Virus genome (UHGV): UHGV-0122598
Length of the DNA: 13,585 bases
Reading direction: 5' to 3' (one strand)
Origin: a virus
Shown here: piece after piece, positions 1,258 to 13,585 of the stretch
Position numbering within the stretch: position 1 is the stretch's first letter
How the letters are laid out: every line of letters starts with the position of its first letter
Notes under the pieces: generated by a model
The model's input: the letters and a program-made list of their open reading frames with translations, nothing else
Databases searched by the model: none
Told to the model about the DNA's origin: nothing
Position numbers and translations under genes: made by a program

Positions 1258-2301
1258 TTAGCTGTTTGCTTCAAGGCTCGTTGCTTTAGTGGAAAGTGTG
1301 GCTAATGGATTGAAACGCAGTGCTGTTTCAAGGTGATCAGGGGCAAGATGTGCATAGCGCATAGTCATTTTTATATCGTGGTGGCCCAGGATTTTTTGCA
1401 AAGCAAGAATGTTCCCGCCGGACATCATAAAATGTGCTGCGAACGTATGGCGTAGAACGTGGGTAAGTTGCCCGCGTGGTAGTACGATCGAGGTTCTATC
1501 CATCACGGCTAAAAACTGGAAGTAGCAGTCAGTAAATAATTTGAAGCCGTCTAGGGCAACAATTTCCTCATACAGCTCTTTGCTGATCGGAATGCTGCGG
1601 TTTTTTTTGCCCTTAGTTCTGACAAATGTGATTCGGTATTTCGTGACCTGAGAACGTGTCAGGTTCACAGCTTCGCGCCAACGTGCTCCGGTGCTCAAGC
1701 AGATTTTGACGACAAGAGCGAGCAGGGGGCTTTGGCGTTGACAGTCGAACAGAAGCTCTGTGATTTGTTCATGTGTCAGCCAGGCCATTTCTTTTTCGGC
1801 AATGGTGAATTTACGCATGTTCTCCAGTGGATTTGGTGCTGTCCATTCACCGAGGCGGGCTAACTCGCTAAAGACCCCACTCAGATAGCTTTGCTCCAGA
1901 TTGATAGTTACCGGGCTGGCTCCTTTCTTCCATTTTTCGCTGAAGTAGATTTCACCCGTCAGGCGCTTATCGCGATAGTGCGCGAACATTTTGGATGTTA
2001 GATCGGTGGCGAGGGGATTTCCGAGAGCATCGACCATCAGTATCAACTTGTCGTAAACATGCTCGCCAGCGGTCAGGGATTTGCCGTGCAGTTTGAACCA
2101 GAGTTCAACGATATCCTGTAGAGTTCGACGGTCTACCGATTCACCAAGCCAAGGCTTAGCTTCTGCCTCCTCCATCGTGTGACGCTCAAAAGCTAATGCT
2201 TCGCCTTTGGTAGCGAACTGTTTACGCACGCGACGCCCGCTGCGTCCGGCGGGGTAACATTCGCAAAGCCATTTCCCTGTGGTTAGTTTTCGTACTGCCA
2301 T
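1258..2301 (-). CDS. int: Phage tyrosine integrase (347 aa from the MAVRKL start)
   Basis: Tyrosine-recombinase catalytic signature HVLRHTFA ... MRYAHL near the C-terminus; ATG at 2301 preceded by GGAGGG 6-7 nt upstream; the ORF-track extension to 2457 lacks an RBS and would add 52 residues not expected for P2/186-type integrases. Confidence 0.9.
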   Translation of the reverse strand: MAVRKLTTGKWLCECYPAGRSGRRVRKQFATKGEALAFERHTMEEAEAKPWLGESVDRRTLQDIVELWFKLHGKSLTAGEHVYDKLILMVDALGNPLATDLTSKMFAHYRDKRLTGEIYFSEKWKKGASPVTINLEQSYLSGVFSELARLGEWTAPNPLENMRKFTIAEKEMAWLTHEQITELLFDCQRQSPLLALVVKICLSTGARWREAVNLTRSQVTKYRITFVRTKGKKNRSIPISKELYEEIVALDGFKLFTDCYFQFLAVMDRTSIVLPRGQLTHVLRHTFAAHFMMSGGNILALQKILGHHDIKMTMRYAHLAPDHLETALRFNPLATLSTKATSLEANS

Positions 2302-2489
2302 AAAAAATGCCCTCCAGTAGAGAGCATTTTCACTGTATGTATAACCAGTGTCAATGTATGAAATCCTACGACCATACATCTCACTGAAGCCATAATTAAG
2401 TTGGCTATTCTTTTTGCTATGTGAGCATGTAATTTTTGCGGTTAACCTGCGGCTCATTTTTATTTTAGGCGCAGATATAAAAGCAAAAG

Positions 2490-2697: not shown

Positions 2698-3267
2698 CTA
2701 TTTAACATACTTGACTGTTAAACTTATAATTTTACCAATTATTTCAATGTCTTCTATCTTGCATTCGAAGGCTCTGTTTCCACCCTCGACGAAGATTCTT
2801 CCACCGGGTAAACGAGTAATGTCACGGATCGTTATTTCGCCATCAATACTTATTACCCATTTACCATCACGTATATCATCAAATTCCTTATCACAAATAA
2901 ATTCAGAATTATTATCTGTGATTGCAAAAAGATTCTTGAATGCCGACGGTAGAAATTCCCTATCGAAAATATAAAAACCGTCTTCACACAAGGCCCCATC
3001 AGATAATACATATTTAGCAACTTCCATAGTATTTGTATTTGCTGATGCTTGCTTTGAACCATGCCCTGTTGTTAGCCAATTAAGCGAGGTGCCCGTTTCA
3101 AGGGCGCACTGGATTACCCAATCTGCTGGAAAAATATCACGCATATAGCGCGTTGCCATGGTGCTCTTAGAAACACCTAAATGATCACAGAGAGCCTGAC
3201 GGGTACCGAACCCATATGCTTCAACTAAACGTTCTATGGCTTTCTTACCGCCGCTATTGAAATCCAC
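2698..3267 (-). CDS. cI: CI-type prophage repressor, 186 CI-like (about 189 aa from the GTG at 3267; the ORF track extends to a GTG at 3354)
   Basis: N-terminal HTH ([25 protein letters not shown] ... [17 protein letters not shown]) and C-terminal segment [36 protein letters not shown] resembling the 186 CI family as I recall it; GTG at 3267 has GGAGGA just upstream and gives a 186-CI-like length; start choice is uncertain. Confidence 0.75.
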
Positions 3268-3412: not shown

Positions 3413-3616
3413 ATGACACCTAACATTTCAATTACTCTGAATACACCACATGTCACAATCGAACGTTATAGCGAACTGACTGGCCTTTCTATTGATACGA
3501 TTAACGACATGTTGGCTGATGGCCGACTACCTCGTCATCGTCTTCGTAAAGACAAAAAACGTGAAAAGGTAATGATTAACCTGGCTGCTCTGACTGTTGA
3601 TGCTTTGTCTGCTTAA
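3413..3616 (+). CDS. Small HTH DNA-binding protein (67 aa), Apl/Cox-like excisionase or lytic regulator by position
   Basis: ORF 3413..3616, divergent from cI; AGGAA 10 nt upstream of the ATG; HTH-like segment [22 protein letters not shown] followed by a basic tail. Confidence 0.65.
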
Positions 3617-3680
3617 TAGACGTCTATTTTCGCAATAAGACGCTGAGTTCGATTTTGCGATAAGTTCGGAGTTGAAAACC

Positions 3681-4190
3681 ATGTTTGATTACCAAGTTTC
3701 CAAACATCCACATTTTGATGAAGCCTGTCGTGCATTCGCACTGCGCCACAATCTGGTGCAACTGGCAGAACGTGCAGGCATGAATGTGCAGATTCTGCGG
3801 AACAAACTGAACCCAGCTCAACCTCATTTATTAACCGCACCAGAAATTTGGTTGCTTACCGATCTGACTGAAGATTCAACGCTGGTAGATGGTTTTCTGG
3901 CACAGATTCACTGCCTGCCATGTGTACCGATTAATGAGGTAGCAAAAGAGAAACTGCCGCATTACGTCATGAGTGCAACTGCAGAGATAGGACGTGTCGC
4001 GGCAGGTGCGGTTTCTGGCGATGTAAAAACCAGTGCAGGCCGTCGTGATGCGATCAGCAGCATTAACTCTGTTACACGACTGATGGCGCTGGCTGCTGTT
4101 TCATTGCAGGCCCGTTTACAGGCTAATCCTGCGATGGCGAGTGCAGTTGATACCATGACTGGTCTTGGTGCTTCATTCGGTTTGCTGTGA
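3681..4190 (+). CDS. cII: Phage regulatory protein CII (169 aa), 186 CII family
   Basis: ORF 3672..4190 (TTG in the track); ATG at 3681 gives [19 protein letters not shown]..., matching the 186 CII N-terminus and 169-aa length as I recall them; position is immediately downstream of the apl-like gene. Confidence 0.8.
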
Positions 4191-5254: not shown

Positions 5255-5481
5255 TGGCTGATGCAATGGATCTCGTACAGCAGCGCGTTGAAGAAGAACG
5301 CCAGCGCCATATTCGTGCTGCCCGTGCCAAAACACCGGGCGTGTCTCGCGTGCTTTGTATTGAATGTGAAGCGCCAATTCCGCCAGCACGACGCCGCGCC
5401 ATTCCGGGAGTGCAGCTTTGCATTACCTGTCAGGAAATCGCAGAGCTGAAAGGCAAACATTACAACGGAGGTGCTGTATGA
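5254..5481 (+). CDS. TraR/DksA-family C4 zinc-finger protein (75 aa)
   Basis: Two CxxC pairs (CIECEAPIPPARRRAIPGVQLCITC) in a small basic protein; this family is common upstream of gene A in P2/186-like early operons. Confidence 0.7.
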   Translation: MADAMDLVQQRVEEERQRHIRAARAKTPGVSRVLCIECEAPIPPARRRAIPGVQLCITCQEIAELKGKHYNGGAV

Positions 5482-6335
5482 GCACCATCCTGAAATGGGC
5501 GGGAAATAAAACCGCCATTATGTCCGAACTGAAAAAACACCTTCCTGCTGGCCCGCGACTGGTTGAACCTTTCGCGGGTTCCTGTGCTGTGATGATGGAG
5601 ACGGATTACCCCAGCTATCTGGTTGCGGATATTAATCCTGATTTAATCAACCTCTATAAAAAGGTTGCCGCTGATTGTGAATCGTTTATATCTCGCGCCA
5701 GAGTTTTATTTGAGATCGCAAACAGGGAGGTGGCTTATTACAACATAAGGCAGGAGTTTAATTACTCCACTGAAATTACTGATTTCATGAAAGCGGTATA
5801 TTTCCTGTATCTCAATCGTCACGGTTACCGTGGTTTATGTCGCTATAACAAGAGCGGGCATTTCAACATTCCCTACGGTAATTATAAAAATCCGTATTTC
5901 CCTGAAAAAGAAATTCGCGCATTTGCAGAAAAAGCCCAGCGAGCAACGTTTATCTGCGCCAGCTTTGATGAAACGCTGGCGATGTTGAAGGCGGGGGATG
6001 TGGTGTATTGCGATCCGCCGTATGACGGTACGTTTTCCGGCTATCACACTGACGGCTTCACTGAAGATGACCAGTATCACCTGGCATCTGTTCTTGAACA
6101 TCGGTCATCAGAAGGACATCCGGTCATTGTTTCTAACAGTGACACATCCCTGATCCGTTCGCTGTATCGCAATTTTACTCACCACTACATCAAGGCAAAA
6201 CGCAGCATCGGTGTGGCAGCTGGCGAGGGTAAATCAGCAACAGAAATCATTGCTGTTTCCGGGCCGCGCTGCTGGGTGGGATTTGATTATTCGCGTGGCG
6301 TGGATAGTTCTGCCGTGTACGGAGTACGTGCATGA
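5478..6335 (+). CDS. dam: DNA adenine methyltransferase, Dam family (285 aa from the MSTILKW start)
   Basis: N-terminal KWAGNK...EPFAGS (SAM-binding) and catalytic DPPY ([10 protein letters not shown]); ATG at 5478 preceded by GGAGG; ATGA overlap with the upstream stop; track start at 5418 is an extension. Confidence 0.85.
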
Positions 6336-8746
6336 GTCATGCCGATATGAACAACTGCTGCGGCTTTAACGAAGCTGCCGCATCGTTCTCATGGAACAGC
6401 CCGAAAAAGGCCATTAACCCTTATCTGGACCCGGTGGAAGTTGCGCCGGTTTCTACGCTTTCAAACCTGATCACTCTGTACGCTGCCGATAACGAGCAGG
6501 AACAGCTGCGCCGTGAGGCGCTGAGTGATCAGGTCTGGGAGCGTTATTTCTTTAATGAATCCCGTGATCCTGTCCAGCGCGAAATGGAACAGGATAAGCT
6601 CATTAGTCGGGCAAAGCTGGCGCATGAGCAGCAGCGTTTTAATCCGGATATGGTCATTCTGGCGGACGTCAACGCCCAGCCTTCCCATATCAGCAAGCCG
6701 CTGATGCAACGTATTGAATACTTCAGCAGCCTGGGCAGGCCAAAGGCTTATTCCCGCTATTTACGTGAGACGATTAAGCCATGTCTGGAACGACTGGAGC
6801 ATGTACGCGACAGTCAGCTATCTGCATCTTTTCGCTTTATGGCAAGCCATGAAGGGCTGGACGGCCTGCTGATCCTGCCTGAAATGAGTCAGGATCAGGT
6901 GAAACGCCTGTCCACCCTGGTAGCTGCGCATATGAGTATGTGCCTTGATGCCGCTTGTGGCGATTTGTATGCCACCGATGACGTTAAGCCAGAAGAAATC
7001 CGCAATACATGGGAAAGGGTGGCAGCGGAAACCCTGCGTCTGGATGTAATCCCGCCTGCGTTTGAGCAACTCCGTCGGAAAAGAAACCGCCGTAAACCCG
7101 TGCCCTATGAACTCATTCCGGGTTCGCTGGCGCGTATGTTGTGCGCCGACTGGTGGTACCGGAAATTATGGAAAATGCGTTGCGAATGGCGGGAAGAGCA
7201 GTTGCGTGCTGTCTGCCTTGTCAGCAAAAAAGCATCTCCCTATGTCAGCTATGAAGCCGTGTTGCATAAACGTGAGCAGCGCCGTAAGTCGCTGGAGTTT
7301 TTCCGTTCTCATGAACTGGTGAACGAAGACGGCGACACGCTGGACATGGAGGATGTGGTAAACGCCAGCAGCAGCAACCCTGCGCATCGCCGCAATGAGA
7401 TGATGGCCTGTGTTAAAGGTCTGGAGCTTATCGCGGAAATGCGCGGTGACTGCGCCGTTTTCTACACCATCACCTGTCCGTCACGTTTCCATTCCACGCT
7501 AAATAACGGCAGGCCCAACCCGACCTGGACAAATGCGACGGTAAGACAAAGCAGCGATTATCTGGTCGGTATGTTTGCTGCATTTCGTAAGGCGATGCAC
7601 AAAGCCGGGTTGCGCTGGTATGGCGTGCGGGTGGCTGAGCCGCATCATGACGGTACAGTTCACTGGCACCTGTTGTGTTTCATGCGCAAAAAAGACCGCC
7701 GCGCCATTACTGCATTGTTGCGTAAGTTTGCTATCCGTGAAGACCGCGAGGAGCTGGGCAATAACACGGGGCCGCGCTTTAAGTCTGAGCTGATTAACCC
7801 GCGCAAAGGAACGCCGACAAGCTACATAGCGAAATACATCAGTAAGAACATTGACGGGCGTGGTCTGGCTGGCGAGATCAGCAAGGAAACGGGTAAATCT
7901 CTGCGTGATAACGCTGAATACGTGAACGCCTGGGCGTCTTTGCATCGTGTTCAGCAATTCCGCTTCTTTGGCATTCCGGGGCGTCAGGCTTACCGTGAAC
8001 TGCGATTGCTGGCTGGTCAGGCGGCAAGGCAACAGGGGGACAAAAAAGCAGGTGCGCCGGTACTGGATAACCCGCGCCTTGATGCCATCTTGGCTGCTGC
8101 TGATGCTGGTTGTTTTGCCACCTACATCATGAAGCAGGGCGGCGTACTGGTTCCCCGTAAATATCACCTCATCAGAACCGCTTATGAAATCAACGAAGAG
8201 CCGACCGCCTATGGCGATCACGGCATTCGTATTTATGGCATCTGGTCACCCATTGCAGAGGGCAAGATCTGCACTCATGCAGTGAAGTGGAAAATGGTTC
8301 GTAAAGCCGTTGACGTTCAGGAGGCGGCAGCCGACCAGGGCGCTTGCGCCCCTTGGACTCGTGGCAATAACTGTCCCCTTGCTGAAAATTTGAACCAACA
8401 AGGGAAAGACAAATCAGCTGATGGGGATACCAGAACGGACATTACCCACATGGATGACAAGGAGTTGCACGATTACCTGCACAGTATGAACAAAAAAGAG
8501 CGCCGGGAACTGGCTGCAAGGTTACGCCTGGTGAAACCGAAACGGCGTAGAGACTACAAACAGCGAATTACAGACCATCAACGACAGCAGCTCGTCTATG
8601 AACTGAAGTCCAGAGGATTTGATGGCAGCGAGAAAGAGGTCGATTTACTCCTTCGCGGCGGCAGTATTCCGTCAGGAGCAGGCCTGCGTGTCTTCTATCG
8701 GAACCAGCGTTTGCAGGAAGATGATAAGTGGCGGAACCTGTATTAA
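6332..8746 (+). CDS. A: Phage replication initiation protein, P2/186 gene A family (rolling-circle endonuclease, 804 aa)
   Basis: Large ORF starting with an ATGA overlap on the dam stop; GGAG 7 nt upstream; HUH-like motif VHWHLL and YIAKYISK segment typical of gpA-type replication endonucleases (family knowledge). Confidence 0.85.
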
Positions 8747-8838
8747 TTACGCGGGTTAACAATTCGTGCTCTTAATAATACCAGGCATATCAGGCTGATG
8801 AACGTAAAAAAACGTTTTACATCAGTAAGATTATTATA

Positions 8839-8858
8839 TACTGTAAATATAAACAGTG
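8839..8858 (+). promoter_or_regulatory. LexA operator (SOS box) TACTGTAAATATAAACAGTG overlapping a candidate promoter
   Basis: Exact CTGT-N8-ACAG with AT-rich centre at 8841-8856; TTACAT -35-like hexamer about 20 bp upstream; about 45 bp upstream of the 8900 start. Confidence 0.7.
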
Positions 8859-8899
8859 GTTATCTATACAGTATTGTTTGTGGTGTCATAGGAGGAAAG

Positions 8900-9088
8900 A
8901 TGCAGGACTATTTTTTGGAGTCTTTGAAGCTCCAGCGCATTGATTTTTTTCTTAAGCTTGTAGCGGCTAGTGAGTGTAGTGATGAAGAGAAGGGGCTGGC
9001 TCTGCAGTGGGTTTCTGAATTGACTGATGAACTCATGGCAAAAATCAGAAGCCACGAATACAACCGCTCAATGGATGTCATCAGCTGA
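8900..9088 (+). CDS. Small SOS-regulated protein (62 aa); Tum-like antirepressor by position only
   Basis: ATG at 8900 preceded by GGAGG (8891-8895); directly downstream of the LexA box; the track start at 8798 lies upstream of the operator and is implausible. Confidence 0.5.
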   Translation: MQDYFLESLKLQRIDFFLKLVAASECSDEEKGLALQWVSELTDELMAKIRSHEYNRSMDVIS

Positions 9089-9098
9089 GGTGACTTTT

Positions 9099-9332
9099 AT
9101 GCGCATTGAAATAATGATCGATAAAGAGCAGAAGATTAGCCAGTCTACCCTGGACGCTCTGGAGTCCGAGCTTTACCGCAACCTGCAACCCATCTATCCC
9201 AAGACCGCTATCCGCATCCGTAAAGGGTCGGCAAACGGCGTTGAGCTGAGTGGCTTAAAGCTTGATGAAGACAAAAAGCGGGTGATGGAAATTATGAAAC
9301 AGGTTTGGGAAGACGACAGCTGGCTGCACTAA
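9099..9332 (+). CDS. dinI: DinI-family protein (77 aa)
   Basis: MRIEIMIDK ... LDALESEL ... DEDKKRVMEIMKQVWEDDSW aligns by eye with E. coli DinI (MRIEVTIAK ... EDKQRISEILQETWESADDW); ATG at 9099 with GAGG 8 nt upstream; track start at 9027 is an extension. Confidence 0.8.
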   Translation: MRIEIMIDKEQKISQSTLDALESELYRNLQPIYPKTAIRIRKGSANGVELSGLKLDEDKKRVMEIMKQVWEDDSWLH

Positions 9333-9450
9333 GGAACGTTCCTGATGTAAGAACTTGAATCTGACGTCAGCAAGGTTGAACAACGAGAGTAGCGAGGCGT
9401 TAGCCATGGGTAAAAAAGACAGTAATCACCAGATTATTTATCGGGGCTAG

Positions 9451-9666
9451 GTGCTGGAACGTTTAACCCTTGGCGACTGGGTCTTCTTTCAACGCCCAAA
9501 GGAGTGTGGCGGAGGTTTTTGGTTGGGCCGCATCTATGAAGACTGCTTCTGGCTTGAGCTGGAATTTCCCGTTTCGCTATATGACGGCCTGGGGTTTTTG
9601 ATGGAAGTCACTAGGGTAGAGCAGAGAAGTGATGAGGTTGACGCGAATTATCCCCTGTTTGATTAA
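9451..9666 (+). CDS. Doubtful hypothetical ORF (71 aa, GTG start, Trp-rich)
   Basis: ORF 9451..9666; GTG start, weak RBS, no recognisable motif; may be a remnant. Confidence 0.3.
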   Translation: MLERLTLGDWVFFQRPKECGGGFWLGRIYEDCFWLELEFPVSLYDGLGFLMEVTRVEQRSDEVDANYPLFD

Positions 9667-9685
9667 AAATGTATTAGCTTATAAT
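9659..9685 (+). promoter_or_regulatory. Candidate sigma70 promoter for the membrane-protein gene: TTGATT, 15-bp spacer, TATAAT
   Basis: Perfect -10 TATAAT at 9680-9685, about 30 bp upstream of the ATG at 9715; -35-like TTGATT at 9659-9664 with a short spacer. Confidence 0.35.
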
Positions 9686-9714
9686 GGAATACTATTTTTG
9701 CAGGTGGGGGCGCA

Positions 9715-10592: not shown

Positions 10593-11672
10593 GTGGCGTT
10601 ATCAGATGCGTTAATTACAGTAAATCAAGCCGAACGGGGCGGTGAAAACGCGTTGAGAGGCTTTTCATATCAAGCCTCTTGGGGGATAAATTATTTACTT
10701 GAGAAACAAAAAGAAAAGGAGAAATATTTATTTCTATTTGAATATCATGACGATATTCTTGTATTGAATTCATCTGTTTCTCCGACTAGTGCTGAGTTTA
10801 TCCAAGTTAAAACAAAAAAAGATGGTAAATGGACACTCGCAGCAATAGTGAACGCAACAAAAGCTAAACCTAAATCATTTGTTGCAAAACTATATGACCA
10901 TTTCTATCAATTCGTTGGTCACGAAATTTATATGGTTCTGTTATCGAATGCTGGATTCGATTTCTTAAATGATAATAACGAAAAAGGTAGTGATCTTAAT
11001 AATGAGCATAAGGAAATTATAATTAGTAAGGTTCAAGAGCAGCTAAATACTAAAAAAGAAGTTCCTCTTGATAAAATAAAATTTAAAACATCTGATCTTA
11101 GTTTGTTAGATCCTAACTCACATTTATACGGGAAAGTTGCAGTTTTTTTGAATTCTTACTTTGGGGATGATCATGGTATTAATTCAACAGCATTCACTAA
11201 ATTATTAATCAATAAGTGTAATGAGAAGGTTAGTGTTGCTTCTAGTGATATCAAAACTTTTGAAGATTTAGTACTAAAGAAAGGTATATCTTCAGAATTT
11301 GTAACTGATTTATTATCTGGACTCATTGCAAGCATAAAAATAACGCCAAAATGGGAACAGGTTTGTATGTTGCTTGGTACTTTCTCAGATCCTTATGAGG
11401 GGATTAAATTACAATCAGTTTTTACACGCATATCAATAAAAGTGCTCAATGTCAATTCAATATACTATCTTTATTTTCTGGAATTTCAATCGGCTCTAAA
11501 GAGTATAGAGCATTATCGTGAGATACCTGTTCGAGACCTCTTCTTTACACTCGAAAAAACAATTGCAGCGGGGGACGGGGATTTCTCTTTATTAAATCAA
11601 GAAGAGAAATTTATGATTGCTATATATGCAATTATAAAGTTGACTTTTGAGGATGTTTCTTATGAAGAATAA
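10593..11672 (+). CDS. Candidate PD-(D/E)xK-type nuclease effector (359 aa), Cap4/LmuA-like N-terminal domain plus an uncharacterised C-terminal domain
   Basis: ORF 10593..11672 (GTG start, AGGGA upstream); N-terminal LFLFEYHDDILVL ... EFIQVKTKK fits a hhD ... (E/Q)xK restriction-endonuclease-like core; about 30% GC by eye; last 11 nt overlap the start of the downstream ATPase gene. Confidence 0.6.
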   Translation: MALSDALITVNQAERGGENALRGFSYQASWGINYLLEKQKEKEKYLFLFEYHDDILVLNSSVSPTSAEFIQVKTKKDGKWTLAAIVNATKAKPKSFVAKLYDHFYQFVGHEIYMVLLSNAGFDFLNDNNEKGSDLNNEHKEIIISKVQEQLNTKKEVPLDKIKFKTSDLSLLDPNSHLYGKVAVFLNSYFGDDHGINSTAFTKLLINKCNEKVSVASSDIKTFEDLVLKKGISSEFVTDLLSGLIASIKITPKWEQVCMLLGTFSDPYEGIKLQSVFTRISIKVLNVNSIYYLYFLEFQSALKSIEHYREIPVRDLFFTLEKTIAAGDGDFSLLNQEEKFMIAIYAIIKLTFEDVSYEE

Positions 11673-13320
11673 CGTTAAATTTAAAAATATAAAAATACTC
11701 TCATTAAGAGACAGAAAAGCTTTTTCTTATGAGTTTTCAGAAGGGGTTAACTTCATATATGGTACAAATGATGTTGGTAAATCAAGCCTGATTAAAAGTC
11801 TTTATTACACATTAGGTGGAGATTTAAGGCTTGATGATGCTTGGAAATCAGATGATATAGTTACACTGGTGGAAATTAATAACGGGGAAAATGATTTTAT
11901 TTTTTTGCGTTATAAAAAGATTATTGGTGTCTTTGATTTGAAGAATGATGATCTAGTCGTGTATAACACGATTTCGTCATTAGCATCTCGTGTTTCAAAT
12001 ATATTTGGTTTTAAACTGGAATTACATAATAAATATACGGGTGCTACGACTCAGGCAAACCCTGCTTGTTTGTTTGCCCCATTCTTTATTGATCAGGATG
12101 AAGGATGGAAAGCGGTGATAAATTCTTTCGAAAACATGAGTATGTACTCAGAATGGCAAAAAAACATTCTTTACTATCACTCTGGAATTAAGCCAAAGGA
12201 ATATTATACAGTTCAAGGGAAAATCAAAGAAATTAAAGTTAAAATTTCAGAGTTAGATGGTTTTGTTAAGGTTCTAAAAAGAAGCAAAAGTAAGATTGAT
12301 GAATCTTTTGGCGTGGTTTTATTTGATGTTGATTTGGATTTTTATAAATCAAAGTTGGAACGTATATTAAATGAATATTCTAATTTAAATTTAGTTCAGA
12401 CAGAATATAGATTAAATCTTTTGAGGTTATATTCTAGGAAGAATTTCCTTGAGAGTGAACTCAAAGAGATAACTGCGATTATTGATAATGAATTTGAGAT
12501 TTCGAATTTTCGAGATGATAATGTTGCTTATTCAGTAAATGAATATAATTATATAAACCATAGAGATGAAATGCTCAAAAACATTGCTGTTCTTGCAGAT
12601 GAGAAAAGCAAGATTGAGGAAAATATTCCTAAATTGAATCAAAAGCTAGAAGAGTCAAGGGCTGCTTCAGAGGCGTTGCAGGCGCTGATTTTAGAAACTC
12701 AATCGGAAATAACGCTTCATGATGTTATTAAATCTGCCGCATACCATGAAATTGAATCTACTTTTATTTCACAGTTAGATGAGTTATTCGTTGAGATTGG
12801 TCGAAAAGAAGGCGAGTTGACAGAATTACAAGAAGAATTAGAAGTATACAATGATAAGAAAAGAACTGTTAAAATAAATGACTGTTTCAAAGAGTATTTC
12901 GCTAAAGCTCTTAAAGAGCTTGGTGTCGAAAATACAAAGGTAGGTGGCCTTAGTAGTTATAATAATATTACTAAGGGTAAGACTGGTAGTCGAGGTCCTC
13001 GAGGTATATTTGCATTTCACTACGCGCTGCTTAGTGTTATGAAAAGCAACTCTTCAGTTGAGAATATGCCTATAGTAATAGACTCTCCAAAGCAACAAGA
13101 TTTGGATCCAGAGCATACGCATAAGCTTATAAAACTATGCTTGGATGGGTTTTCCCTTACAAATCAGATTATTATTGGAACTGTTGGTTATGAGAGTTTC
13201 ATGGATGGTTTTAATAGCATCAAACTTGAAAATAAATATCATCTTTTAAATGATGAACATTATGATAATGTTTATTCTCAATTAATGCCATTGTTTGAAC
13301 GGGTGATACTTTCAAGATGA
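11662..13320 (+). CDS. SMC/ABC-type coiled-coil ATPase (552 aa from the MKNNVKF start), LmuB-like
   Basis: ATG at 11662 with GAGGA 9 nt upstream; Walker A GTNDVGKSS at residues 34-42; long E/K/L-rich coiled-coil middle; Walker-B-like MPIVIDSP, D-loop-like DLD and His near the C-terminus; the track start at 11647 is a 5-codon extension. Confidence 0.75.
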   Translation: MKNNVKFKNIKILSLRDRKAFSYEFSEGVNFIYGTNDVGKSSLIKSLYYTLGGDLRLDDAWKSDDIVTLVEINNGENDFIFLRYKKIIGVFDLKNDDLVVYNTISSLASRVSNIFGFKLELHNKYTGATTQANPACLFAPFFIDQDEGWKAVINSFENMSMYSEWQKNILYYHSGIKPKEYYTVQGKIKEIKVKISELDGFVKVLKRSKSKIDESFGVVLFDVDLDFYKSKLERILNEYSNLNLVQTEYRLNLLRLYSRKNFLESELKEITAIIDNEFEISNFRDDNVAYSVNEYNYINHRDEMLKNIAVLADEKSKIEENIPKLNQKLEESRAASEALQALILETQSEITLHDVIKSAAYHEIESTFISQLDELFVEIGRKEGELTELQEELEVYNDKKRTVKINDCFKEYFAKALKELGVENTKVGGLSSYNNITKGKTGSRGPRGIFAFHYALLSVMKSNSSVENMPIVIDSPKQQDLDPEHTHKLIKLCLDGFSLTNQIIIGTVGYESFMDGFNSIKLENKYHLLNDEHYDNVYSQLMPLFERVILSR

Positions 13321-13360: not shown

Positions 13361-13585
13361 TTAAATTTTTAGTTCGTAGGTTGAAAAATTTATAATTCTA
13401 TCGTTTAACCAATTATTTATTTCTAGAAACATTTTTTGTAGAGGCAGTAGCTCATTTCGTACAAATACTGTGCTTGCCTTTTCGATATCCCCAAACCCCC
13501 CGACATTATTAGGCATTATCCCCATCATTTGTGGCGGCACACGATGCGCCGCCATCATGTCATCCCGGCTCACGTTCTTGATATT
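13361..13585 (-). CDS. 3' end of a phage portal-like gene (P2 gpQ-like C-terminus); partial, the reading frame stays open to the window edge
   Basis: C-terminal sequence AAHRVPPQMMGIMPNNVGGFGDIEKASTVFVRNELLPLQ resembles the P2-family portal C-terminus as I recall it; orientation and position just beyond the cos-like site fit P2/186 prophage synteny; the GTG at 13573 is not the true start. Confidence 0.55.
   Translation of the reverse strand, partial: NIKNVSRDDMMAAHRVPPQMMGIMPNNVGGFGDIEKASTVFVRNELLPLQKMFLEINNWLNDRIINFSTYELKI

Follow-up and report, generated by a model that had tools for sequence, protein, structure and literature searches.

The segment between positions 8839 and 9332 of the window (the whole stretch of DNA that was analysed, 13,585 nucleotides of the virus genome UHGV-0122598) is very probably the SOS induction operon of a Fels-2/186-like prophage (Peduoviridae) with a split tum gene, in which a LexA-controlled promoter would drive a tumA-like gene coding for a predicted antirepressor, followed by a tumB-like gene coding for a DinI-family protein. 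This element is a further copy of the described split tum operon of the Fels-2/PSP3 type, the core of which was already known. Two modest details are new: the operator carries a double SOS box of the colicin type, and, as judged from sequence comparisons, the TumA sequence appears to be uncoupled from the CI sequence, one TumA being found with many immunity types. Both extend the 186/Fels-2 induction model slightly and can be tested.

From its ORF list and profile matches, the window corresponds to the early arm of a prophage of the P2/186-like type (Peduoviridae). It comprises an integrase gene (1258-2457, minus strand), the cI gene of a 186-type CI repressor (minus strand, 2698-3267 with a GTG start, within a maximal ORF that extends to 3354), a cox/apl-like gene (3413-3616), a cII-like gene (3672-4190), a Dam methylase gene (5418-6335), the gene of the replication endonuclease gpA (6332-8746; PF05840, E 1.6e-127), the SOS module made up of the LexA operator, tumA and tumB (8839-9332), variable cargo (9333 to about 13320) and the start of a portal gene (13361-13573, minus strand). 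The SOS operon begins about 90 nt 3' of gpA, and this order of gpA and SOS module is common to 186, PSP3, Fels-2 and Cartapus. Over positions 8700-9700 the closest phage record is that of Escherichia phage Cartapus (97.3%), and the same region is present at 99% identity or more in 21 RefSeq E. coli records; some match to the module region was obtained in 1126 of the 5426 complete E. coli genomes (about one fifth).

The tumA-like gene (8900-9088, plus strand; phrog_698, E 5.9e-38) codes for 62 aa from ATG 8900 to the stop codon TGA 9086-9088, and is preceded by the ribosome-binding site AGGAGGA (8890-8896, plus strand), which was read from the sequence and of which AGGAGG is kept in relatives. 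The tumB-like gene (9099-9332, plus strand) codes for 77 aa and belongs to the DinI family (PF06183, E 2.6e-23); its ribosome-binding site GAGGTG (9087-9092, plus strand) overlaps the tumA stop codon, and 10 nt separate this stop codon from the tumB ATG. Here the split tum thus forms two cistrons with a stop codon between them, each of which has a separate ribosome-binding site. The initial annotation had described a module at the position of 186 tum, with a 62-aa gene preceded by a consensus ribosome-binding site and a clear DinI homologue on its 3' side; these points were all recovered, the module lying directly after gpA as in 186. A longer reading of tumA (96 aa, from ATG 8798) was rejected, its upstream part being unconserved in frame or sequence: a 1-nt indel between the window and Fels-2/Cartapus shifts the frame of this extension, and SopEPhi has only 17 open codons 5' of the tumA ATG. 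Gene callers often lengthen the tumA ORF to 84-101 aa. A 101-aa reading of tumB from ATG 9027 was also rejected, the DinI domain starting at residue 14 of the 77-aa form. The hairpin flagged by the scan between tumA and tumB (9077-9094) was not retained as a translational-coupling or attenuator element, being no stabler than shuffled sequence (z -1.16).

The 62-aa protein belongs to no Pfam or NCBIfam family according to the profile search, is labelled "unknown function" in PHROG 698 and hypothetical in RefSeq, and has homologues that some sources name "levan regulatory protein". Its family, assembled from 1.84 billion representatives, counts 484 homologues at E <=0.01 (67 representatives at 50% identity), with conserved start and ribosome-binding site. 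No TumA-DinI fusion was found in this family, within the same 1.84 billion representatives and 67 family representatives; its few long matches are chimeras, sequences extended at the N-terminus or sequences of low complexity. AlphaFold2 models TumA with high confidence as a two-helix hairpin (pLDDT 90; helices at residues 2-23 and 28-61) with a conserved Cys26 in the turn. Foldseek comparison of this model with PDB and BFVD returned generic helical hairpins only (E >0.6), and the profile search of PDB sequences with TumA gave no match.

Comparison of TumA with 186 Tum by BLASTP gave no alignment. An ungapped local alignment of 35 residues with Tum 6-41 scored 57, against 21 +/- 4 for shuffled sequences, a score reached by one of 5000 shuffles. 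The TumA-family HMM matched residues 7-48 of 186 Tum with 27.7 bits, and hhalign aligned the family profile collinearly with one made from relatives of the Tum N-terminus, at 94.8% probability (E 4.9e-8, residues 4-43 to 4-43), identity being about 20% over 40 aligned residues. Distant members of the family are visibly Tum-like (...ESLALQRIELVARLVADSECGDADKELAINWIAELT, compared with ...EHVMIERVEMIARLTAEGTCQERDREIALNLIAEIA in Tum). By these profile comparisons, the 62-aa family and the Tum N-terminal domain of 186 are homologous. The protein was held in the initial annotation to be unrecognisable by sequence, which does not stand since profile methods recognise it as the known TumA type; the antirepressor role proposed there is supported by the homology with the Tum N-terminus and by the STM2728/PSP3 precedent, the activity of the window protein being predicted from these. 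This profile homology and the PSP3/Fels-2 precedent are also the grounds for the name TumA-like antirepressor, which can be given to a protein so far annotated as hypothetical (PHROG 698).

In 186, tum follows gene A, a LexA box covers a TACTGT -10 hexamer and the CI target is of the same type, all as in the window. The N-terminal domain of 186 Tum is the homologue of TumA and its DinI-like C-terminal domain that of TumB; both parts are fused there into a Tum of 146 aa, unlike the split genes of the window, and in 186 there is only one LexA box and the leader is shorter. The 186 record states that full-length Tum "inhibits CI DNA binding", and that an internal GTG start in tum yields a 77-aa DinI-like product that "modulates SOS induction". 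For 186 it is established that p95 is derepressed from LexA and that Tum sequesters CI, and both steps have been put to use in an engineered induction module (PMC7708051).

Fels-2 and PSP3 have the same layout as the window, namely gpA, LexA box, a gene of 60-62 aa and a DinI-like gene of 77 aa. In Fels-2 the pair consists of STM2728 (62 aa, to which the window TumA is 96.8% identical) followed by the DinI-family gene STM2726.1 (STM2727); the sequence 5' of this pair, with its two LexA boxes, is nearly the same as in the window, whereas the downstream cargo (a 243-aa ORF) is unlike that of the window and the CI is of a different immunity type. The PSP3 record describes tumA (60 aa) as "similar to 5' end 186 tum; UV induction of prophage" and tumB as "similar to dinI and 3' end of 186 tum"; PSP3 TumA is very divergent (searched as a single sequence, it reaches only E 0.005 with the family HMM), and there is one LexA box in PSP3. 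Searching the literature for TumA/TumB by name returned unrelated papers only. The primary source for the split tum of Fels-2 is reportedly Bunny et al. 2002. Lemire et al. 2011 (PMC3121763) state that tum of Fels-2 and PSP3 is split by a stop codon, and cite second-hand, as a personal communication, that the antirepressor activity of PSP3 lies in the upstream gene. In Salmonella TA100 the Fels-2 operon STM2726-STM2727-STM2728 responds to the mutagen MX, STM2727 being increased 5.5, 11.1 and 14.8-fold, at the top of the LexA-regulon table (PMC2225428). The dinI-gfoA/gftA operons of Gifsy-1/2/3 are likewise LexA-repressed and pair a small antirepressor with a DinI homologue, and the repressor is inactivated there through binding and not cleavage, like in the model proposed here (PMC3121763); they differ from the window in that dinI comes first, the phages are lambdoid and the repressor family is unrelated. 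SOS induction of Fels-2, antirepressor activity of PSP3 tumA and Tum-CI sequestration in 186 are thus taken from the literature on relatives, and would apply to the window by analogy.

The likely start of cI is GTG 3267, with GGAGG 5' of it, which gives a protein of 189 aa. This protein matches PF07022 (E 3e-31) and PF16452 (E 2.2e-26), corresponding to the HTH and C-terminal domains, is 33% identical to 186 CI (E 1e-37), and stays below threshold for Peptidase_S24 (15.9 vs 23.3 bits). On these matches it is a 186-type CI, the class of repressor inactivated by Tum. It is the presumed target of TumA, the two being assumed to form a cognate pair, and we infer that the window CI would be inactivated by the window TumA.

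This pairing is where the alternative that survives best, unlikely as it appears, would apply: the module would be SOS-regulated yet would not be the switch of this prophage, TumA being mismatched to a divergent resident CI, and the operon would either do no more than modulate SOS, through TumB, or exert its effect in trans, on other prophages, a capacity of antirepressors shown in Lemire 2011 (PMC3121763). Near-identical TumA proteins (at least 96.8%; 96.8-98.4% to that of the window) do occur beside CIs that are 39-59% identical mutually and to the window CI (phages compared: 813R9, Kp4872-2, Cartapus/RE2010, Kp4848-2 and ST15-OXA48phi14.1), the window CI being 39-57% identical to those found with the same TumA, and the best match to the window CI in the phage database reaches 57% identity. 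Such a pattern is expected if recombination shuffles the immunity region separately from the right-end module. The mismatch is, however, difficult to reconcile with the occurrence of this TumA with diverse CIs in Cartapus, Fels-2 and RE2010, which were recovered as particles or classed as functional, and with the spread of the module, with intact LexA boxes, through about one fifth of complete E. coli genomes, which indicates purifying selection. Moreover, the N-terminal domain of CI is still 60-83% identical within the group of phages with the same TumA (23-52% for the C-terminal domain).

The preferred reading, in which TumA inactivates the resident CI, may be extended, tentatively and with more doubt than confidence, to a Fels-2-type TumA acting as a generalist antirepressor over at least 6 CI immunity types under a colicin-type double LexA operator. 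Occurring with so many CI types, a generalist TumA would have to bind a small conserved patch of 186-type CI; if it exists, TumA made by one prophage during SOS could release heteroimmune P2-like prophages of the same host cell from repression, and cross-induction between such prophages, as shown for the Gifsy phages, is plausible. TumA broadly tracks the CI N-terminal domain, the identity of which is 71-83% in comparisons with TumA at 85% or more and 40-60% in those with TumA at 49% or less; that of the C-terminal domain is flat at 25-41% throughout. The higher identity of the N-terminal domain among phages with the same TumA (60-83%, against 23-52% for the C-terminal domain) hints that TumA may recognise the N-terminal domain. 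ESSI2_ev040 and ev015 form a counter-example: their TumA proteins are both 49.1% identical to that of the window, with CI N-terminal domains 72% and 48% identical to the window one.

The product of tumB scores 82.6 bits against DinI PF06183 (cut-off 24.2 bits) and 51 bits against the host-dinI equivalog NF007893, below the NCBIfam cut-off of 111 bits. It aligns with the profile phrog_189 (151 positions) over positions 71-148, and its identity is 41% with the C-terminal half of 186 Tum (residues 71-145) and 91% with PSP3 TumB. That TumB itself, for example via RecA, would be the trigger of induction, the 62-aa protein being an accessory or an unrelated regulator, is highly improbable. This idea could draw on the 186 record, which calls all Tum products "RecA filament binding protein DinI" and credits the truncated DinI-like product with a modulation of SOS induction, and on the naming of 62-aa homologues as levan regulatory proteins; but in that same record the CI-inhibiting product is full-length Tum and the DinI-only product merely "modulates". 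In PSP3, the antirepressor activity was attributed to the upstream gene (second-hand, PMC3121763), and deletions of the dinI homologues of Gifsy phages left induction unaffected (Lemire 2011, PMC3121763). Three lineages (ESSI-2, ev040 and YenM_06.16-2) retain a LexA-boxed tumA-like gene without any dinI gene, so that TumA behaves as an autonomous unit, which fits a self-sufficient inducer. The 91% identity of TumB between the window and PSP3, the TumA proteins of which are barely alignable, fits a conserved target in the host (RecA) for TumB and one on the phage side for TumA.

The operator upstream of tumA contains LexA box 1, TACTGTAAATATAAACAGTG (8839-8858), with the core CTGT-N8-ACAG at 8841-8856. 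This exact core occurs once in the window (0.12 expected by chance), and at least once in 21 of 200 shuffles; the 20-mer agrees with the LexA consensus at 17 of 20 positions (3 differences), a match found in none of the 200 shuffles. The left end of the box is the TACTGT -10 hexamer (8839-8844, plus strand) of a p95-like SOS promoter, identical to the annotated -10 of 186 p95, and the -35 hexamer TTTACA (8816-8821, plus strand) lies 17 nt 5' of it; 186 p95 is annotated as TTCACA-N18-TACTGT, with a LexA site beginning at the -10. The exact LexA operator and its overlap with a candidate promoter had both been reported in the initial annotation and were found again, the box being unique in the window and covering the -10 as in 186 p95. 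The generic sigma-70 scan called no promoter for the SOS module, because the TACTGT -10 agrees with TATAAT at only 3 of 6 positions; the promoter is assigned by analogy with 186 p95 and by conservation, and consensus strength is not a basis for it. The sequence TT[TC]ACA is present at the same spacing in Cartapus, Fels-2, SopEPhi, MLG42, Kp phi4.1, ESSI-2 and ev040, and TACTGT-N8-ACAGT(A/G) was found 5' of the tumA-like start in all 11 Peduoviridae lineages compared (the window, 186, PSP3, Cartapus, Fels-2, SopEPhi, Yersinia MLG42, Klebsiella phi4.1, ESSI2_ev040, Cronobacter ESSI-2 and Yersinia YenM_06.16-2), the flanks of the conserved box being often unalignable between lineages. That a LexA-like palindrome just happens to lie next to a spurious small ORF, in favour of which stand the recurrence of the pattern, specified by 8 bases, in 21 of 200 shuffles and the silence of the generic scan, has a negligible probability and is, on the conservation data, already refuted: the 17/20 match arises in no shuffle, the box is conserved in 11 phage lineages, and the ORF has 484 homologues with conserved start and ribosome-binding site.

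A second LexA box, absent from the initial annotation, overlaps box 1. Box 2 is CAGTGGTTATCTATACAGTA (8854-8873), with the core GTGG-N8-ACAG at 8856-8871 (16-mer GTGGTTATCTATACAG), the left half of which is degenerate (GTGG) and the right half perfect; the two cores overlap by 1 bp, G8856 being common to both. The 20-mer has five mismatches to the LexA consensus, a level (<=5 mismatches) reached at 3 positions in the whole window, and it is located exactly 15 nt from box 1. The sequence TATACAGT is conserved about 15 nt 3' of box 1 in Fels-2-like lineages. The composite pattern CTGT-N8-MCAGTGG-N8-ACAG is present in Cartapus, Fels-2, SopEPhi, MLG42, Kp phi4.1 and two Col plasmids, and was not found in 186, PSP3, ESSI-2, ev040 and YenM by the same pattern comparison.

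A query with the 41-nt operator matched small mobilizable plasmids at 87-89% identity. The colicin operators compared are those of pBS512_7 and of the E. coli MP1 plasmid, both located 5' of pore-forming colicin genes (in pBS512_7, immunity and lysis genes adjoin the colicin gene). These operators, AACTGTATATAAAACCAGTGGTTATATATACAGTATTTG, are identical to the window operator at 32-33 of 39 nt, and have the same 1-bp overlap and register of the boxes; the promoter hexamers, the distance between hexamers and boxes, and the controlled genes differ from those of the window. Double SOS boxes of colicin genes bind two LexA dimers, which results in a very tight repression of a cell-killing gene (PMC2994835). 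The same logic may be carried over to tumA, since leaky expression of this gene would set off the prophage and be lethal to the host; by analogy, two LexA dimers would also occupy the double operator of the window.

In the model proposed for an undamaged cell, LexA would be bound to the double operator, covering the -10 at box 1 and the transcript start at box 2, and this occupancy would silence the p95-like promoter. Upon DNA damage and self-cleavage of LexA, the promoter would transcribe tumA and tumB; TumA, as a 62-aa helical hairpin, is predicted to bind the 186-type CI stoichiometrically and to keep it off its operators, and removal of CI would derepress the early lytic promoter and induce the prophage. 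TumB, a DinI paralogue, would most likely act on RecA filaments, tuning how strong the SOS signal is or how long it lasts, and would not itself be the inducer. The module thus predicts, for the prophage of the window, induction by DNA damage through an antirepressor and not through repressor cleavage. The same prediction extends to the related elements in about one fifth of complete E. coli genomes, and antirepressor-based induction bears on phage release under antibiotic stress.

No terminator-like site was detected by the generic terminator scan after tumB (9333-9450), so the SOS transcript may run on into the downstream cargo, by analogy with 186 p95, which reads into orf97. Similarity to Klebsiella and other Fels-2-like phages stops at about 9328-9404, just past the tumB stop codon, and the cargo that follows in the window contains an 86-aa gene that a stop codon interrupts, an ORF of 203 aa and a Lamassu system.

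The 120 top-scoring matches to the N-terminal, TumA-like part of 186 Tum (residues 1-69 of this fused 146-aa antirepressor) are 68-96% identical to it; most are proteins of 63-92 aa with no DinI domain, and several carry the name "Tum protein". Because most of these hits are short and devoid of the DinI domain, the split tum organization seems to be common even in close relatives of 186, with the reservation that its apparent frequency could be inflated by fragmentary contigs, and the fused form found in 186 itself may be the rarer state.

A tumA-like gene preceded by a canonical LexA box was also found in sequence stretches from three related phages, namely ESSI2_ev040 (1453-1713 of its stretch), Cronobacter ESSI-2 (1501-1668, where the gene is wholly unannotated) and Yersinia YenM_06.16-2 (1477-1659), and in these three no DinI-like gene was found downstream of it. 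In ESSI2_ev040 and Cronobacter ESSI-2, the genes that come next after the tumA-like gene encode a transcriptional regulator and the portal protein. In some sources (UniRef for P0021, and Klebsiella phage ST340-VIM1phi10.2), homologues of the TumA product encoded at 8900-9088 in the window are named "levan regulatory protein" or "levan regulatory domain protein"; no support was found for this name, and it looks like a propagated annotation.

Downstream of the tum operon, the region 9406-9666 corresponds to an uninterrupted 86-aa phrog_2100 ORF (of unknown function) in Escherichia phage Cartapus. The window's copy of this gene is broken by an amber codon (TAG at 9448-9450, versus CAG in Cartapus), so that 14 codons are left as a stub in front of the stop and the rest, 71 aa, starts from GTG at 9451. 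The stretch from the tum operon to the portal gene also holds a two-gene Lamassu anti-phage system (10593-13320), composed of LmuA (DUF4297; 10593-11672, matching PDLC00243 with an E-value of 4e-143) and LmuB (an SMC-like ATPase; 11647-13320, matching PDLC00255 with an E-value of 8.6e-254). The G + C content of this block is low, at about 30% versus 45-54% in the phage core.

The true start of the integrase gene int is probably an ATG at 2301 (MAVRKL...) preceded by GGAGGG, and some 30 nt upstream of it lies a third LexA-like site of the window (CACTGTATGTATAACCAGTG, 2331-2350), with 5 mismatches to the consensus. From this candidate site LexA might control int. Between int and the repressor gene cI lies a small gene (2490-2708) whose product RefSeq assigns to the YdcA family; in Cartapus there is no gap between int and cI. 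The cI-ydcA-int arrangement was found in 590 complete E. coli genomes at a coverage of at least 80%.

In the 4LV2017/Kp4872-2 group, the CI open frame is 313 aa long when counted from the first ATG, and within it the CI helix-turn-helix domain appears to occur twice in tandem; tblastn placed the CI region at two places per record in Klebsiella phage Kp4872-2 and its relatives.
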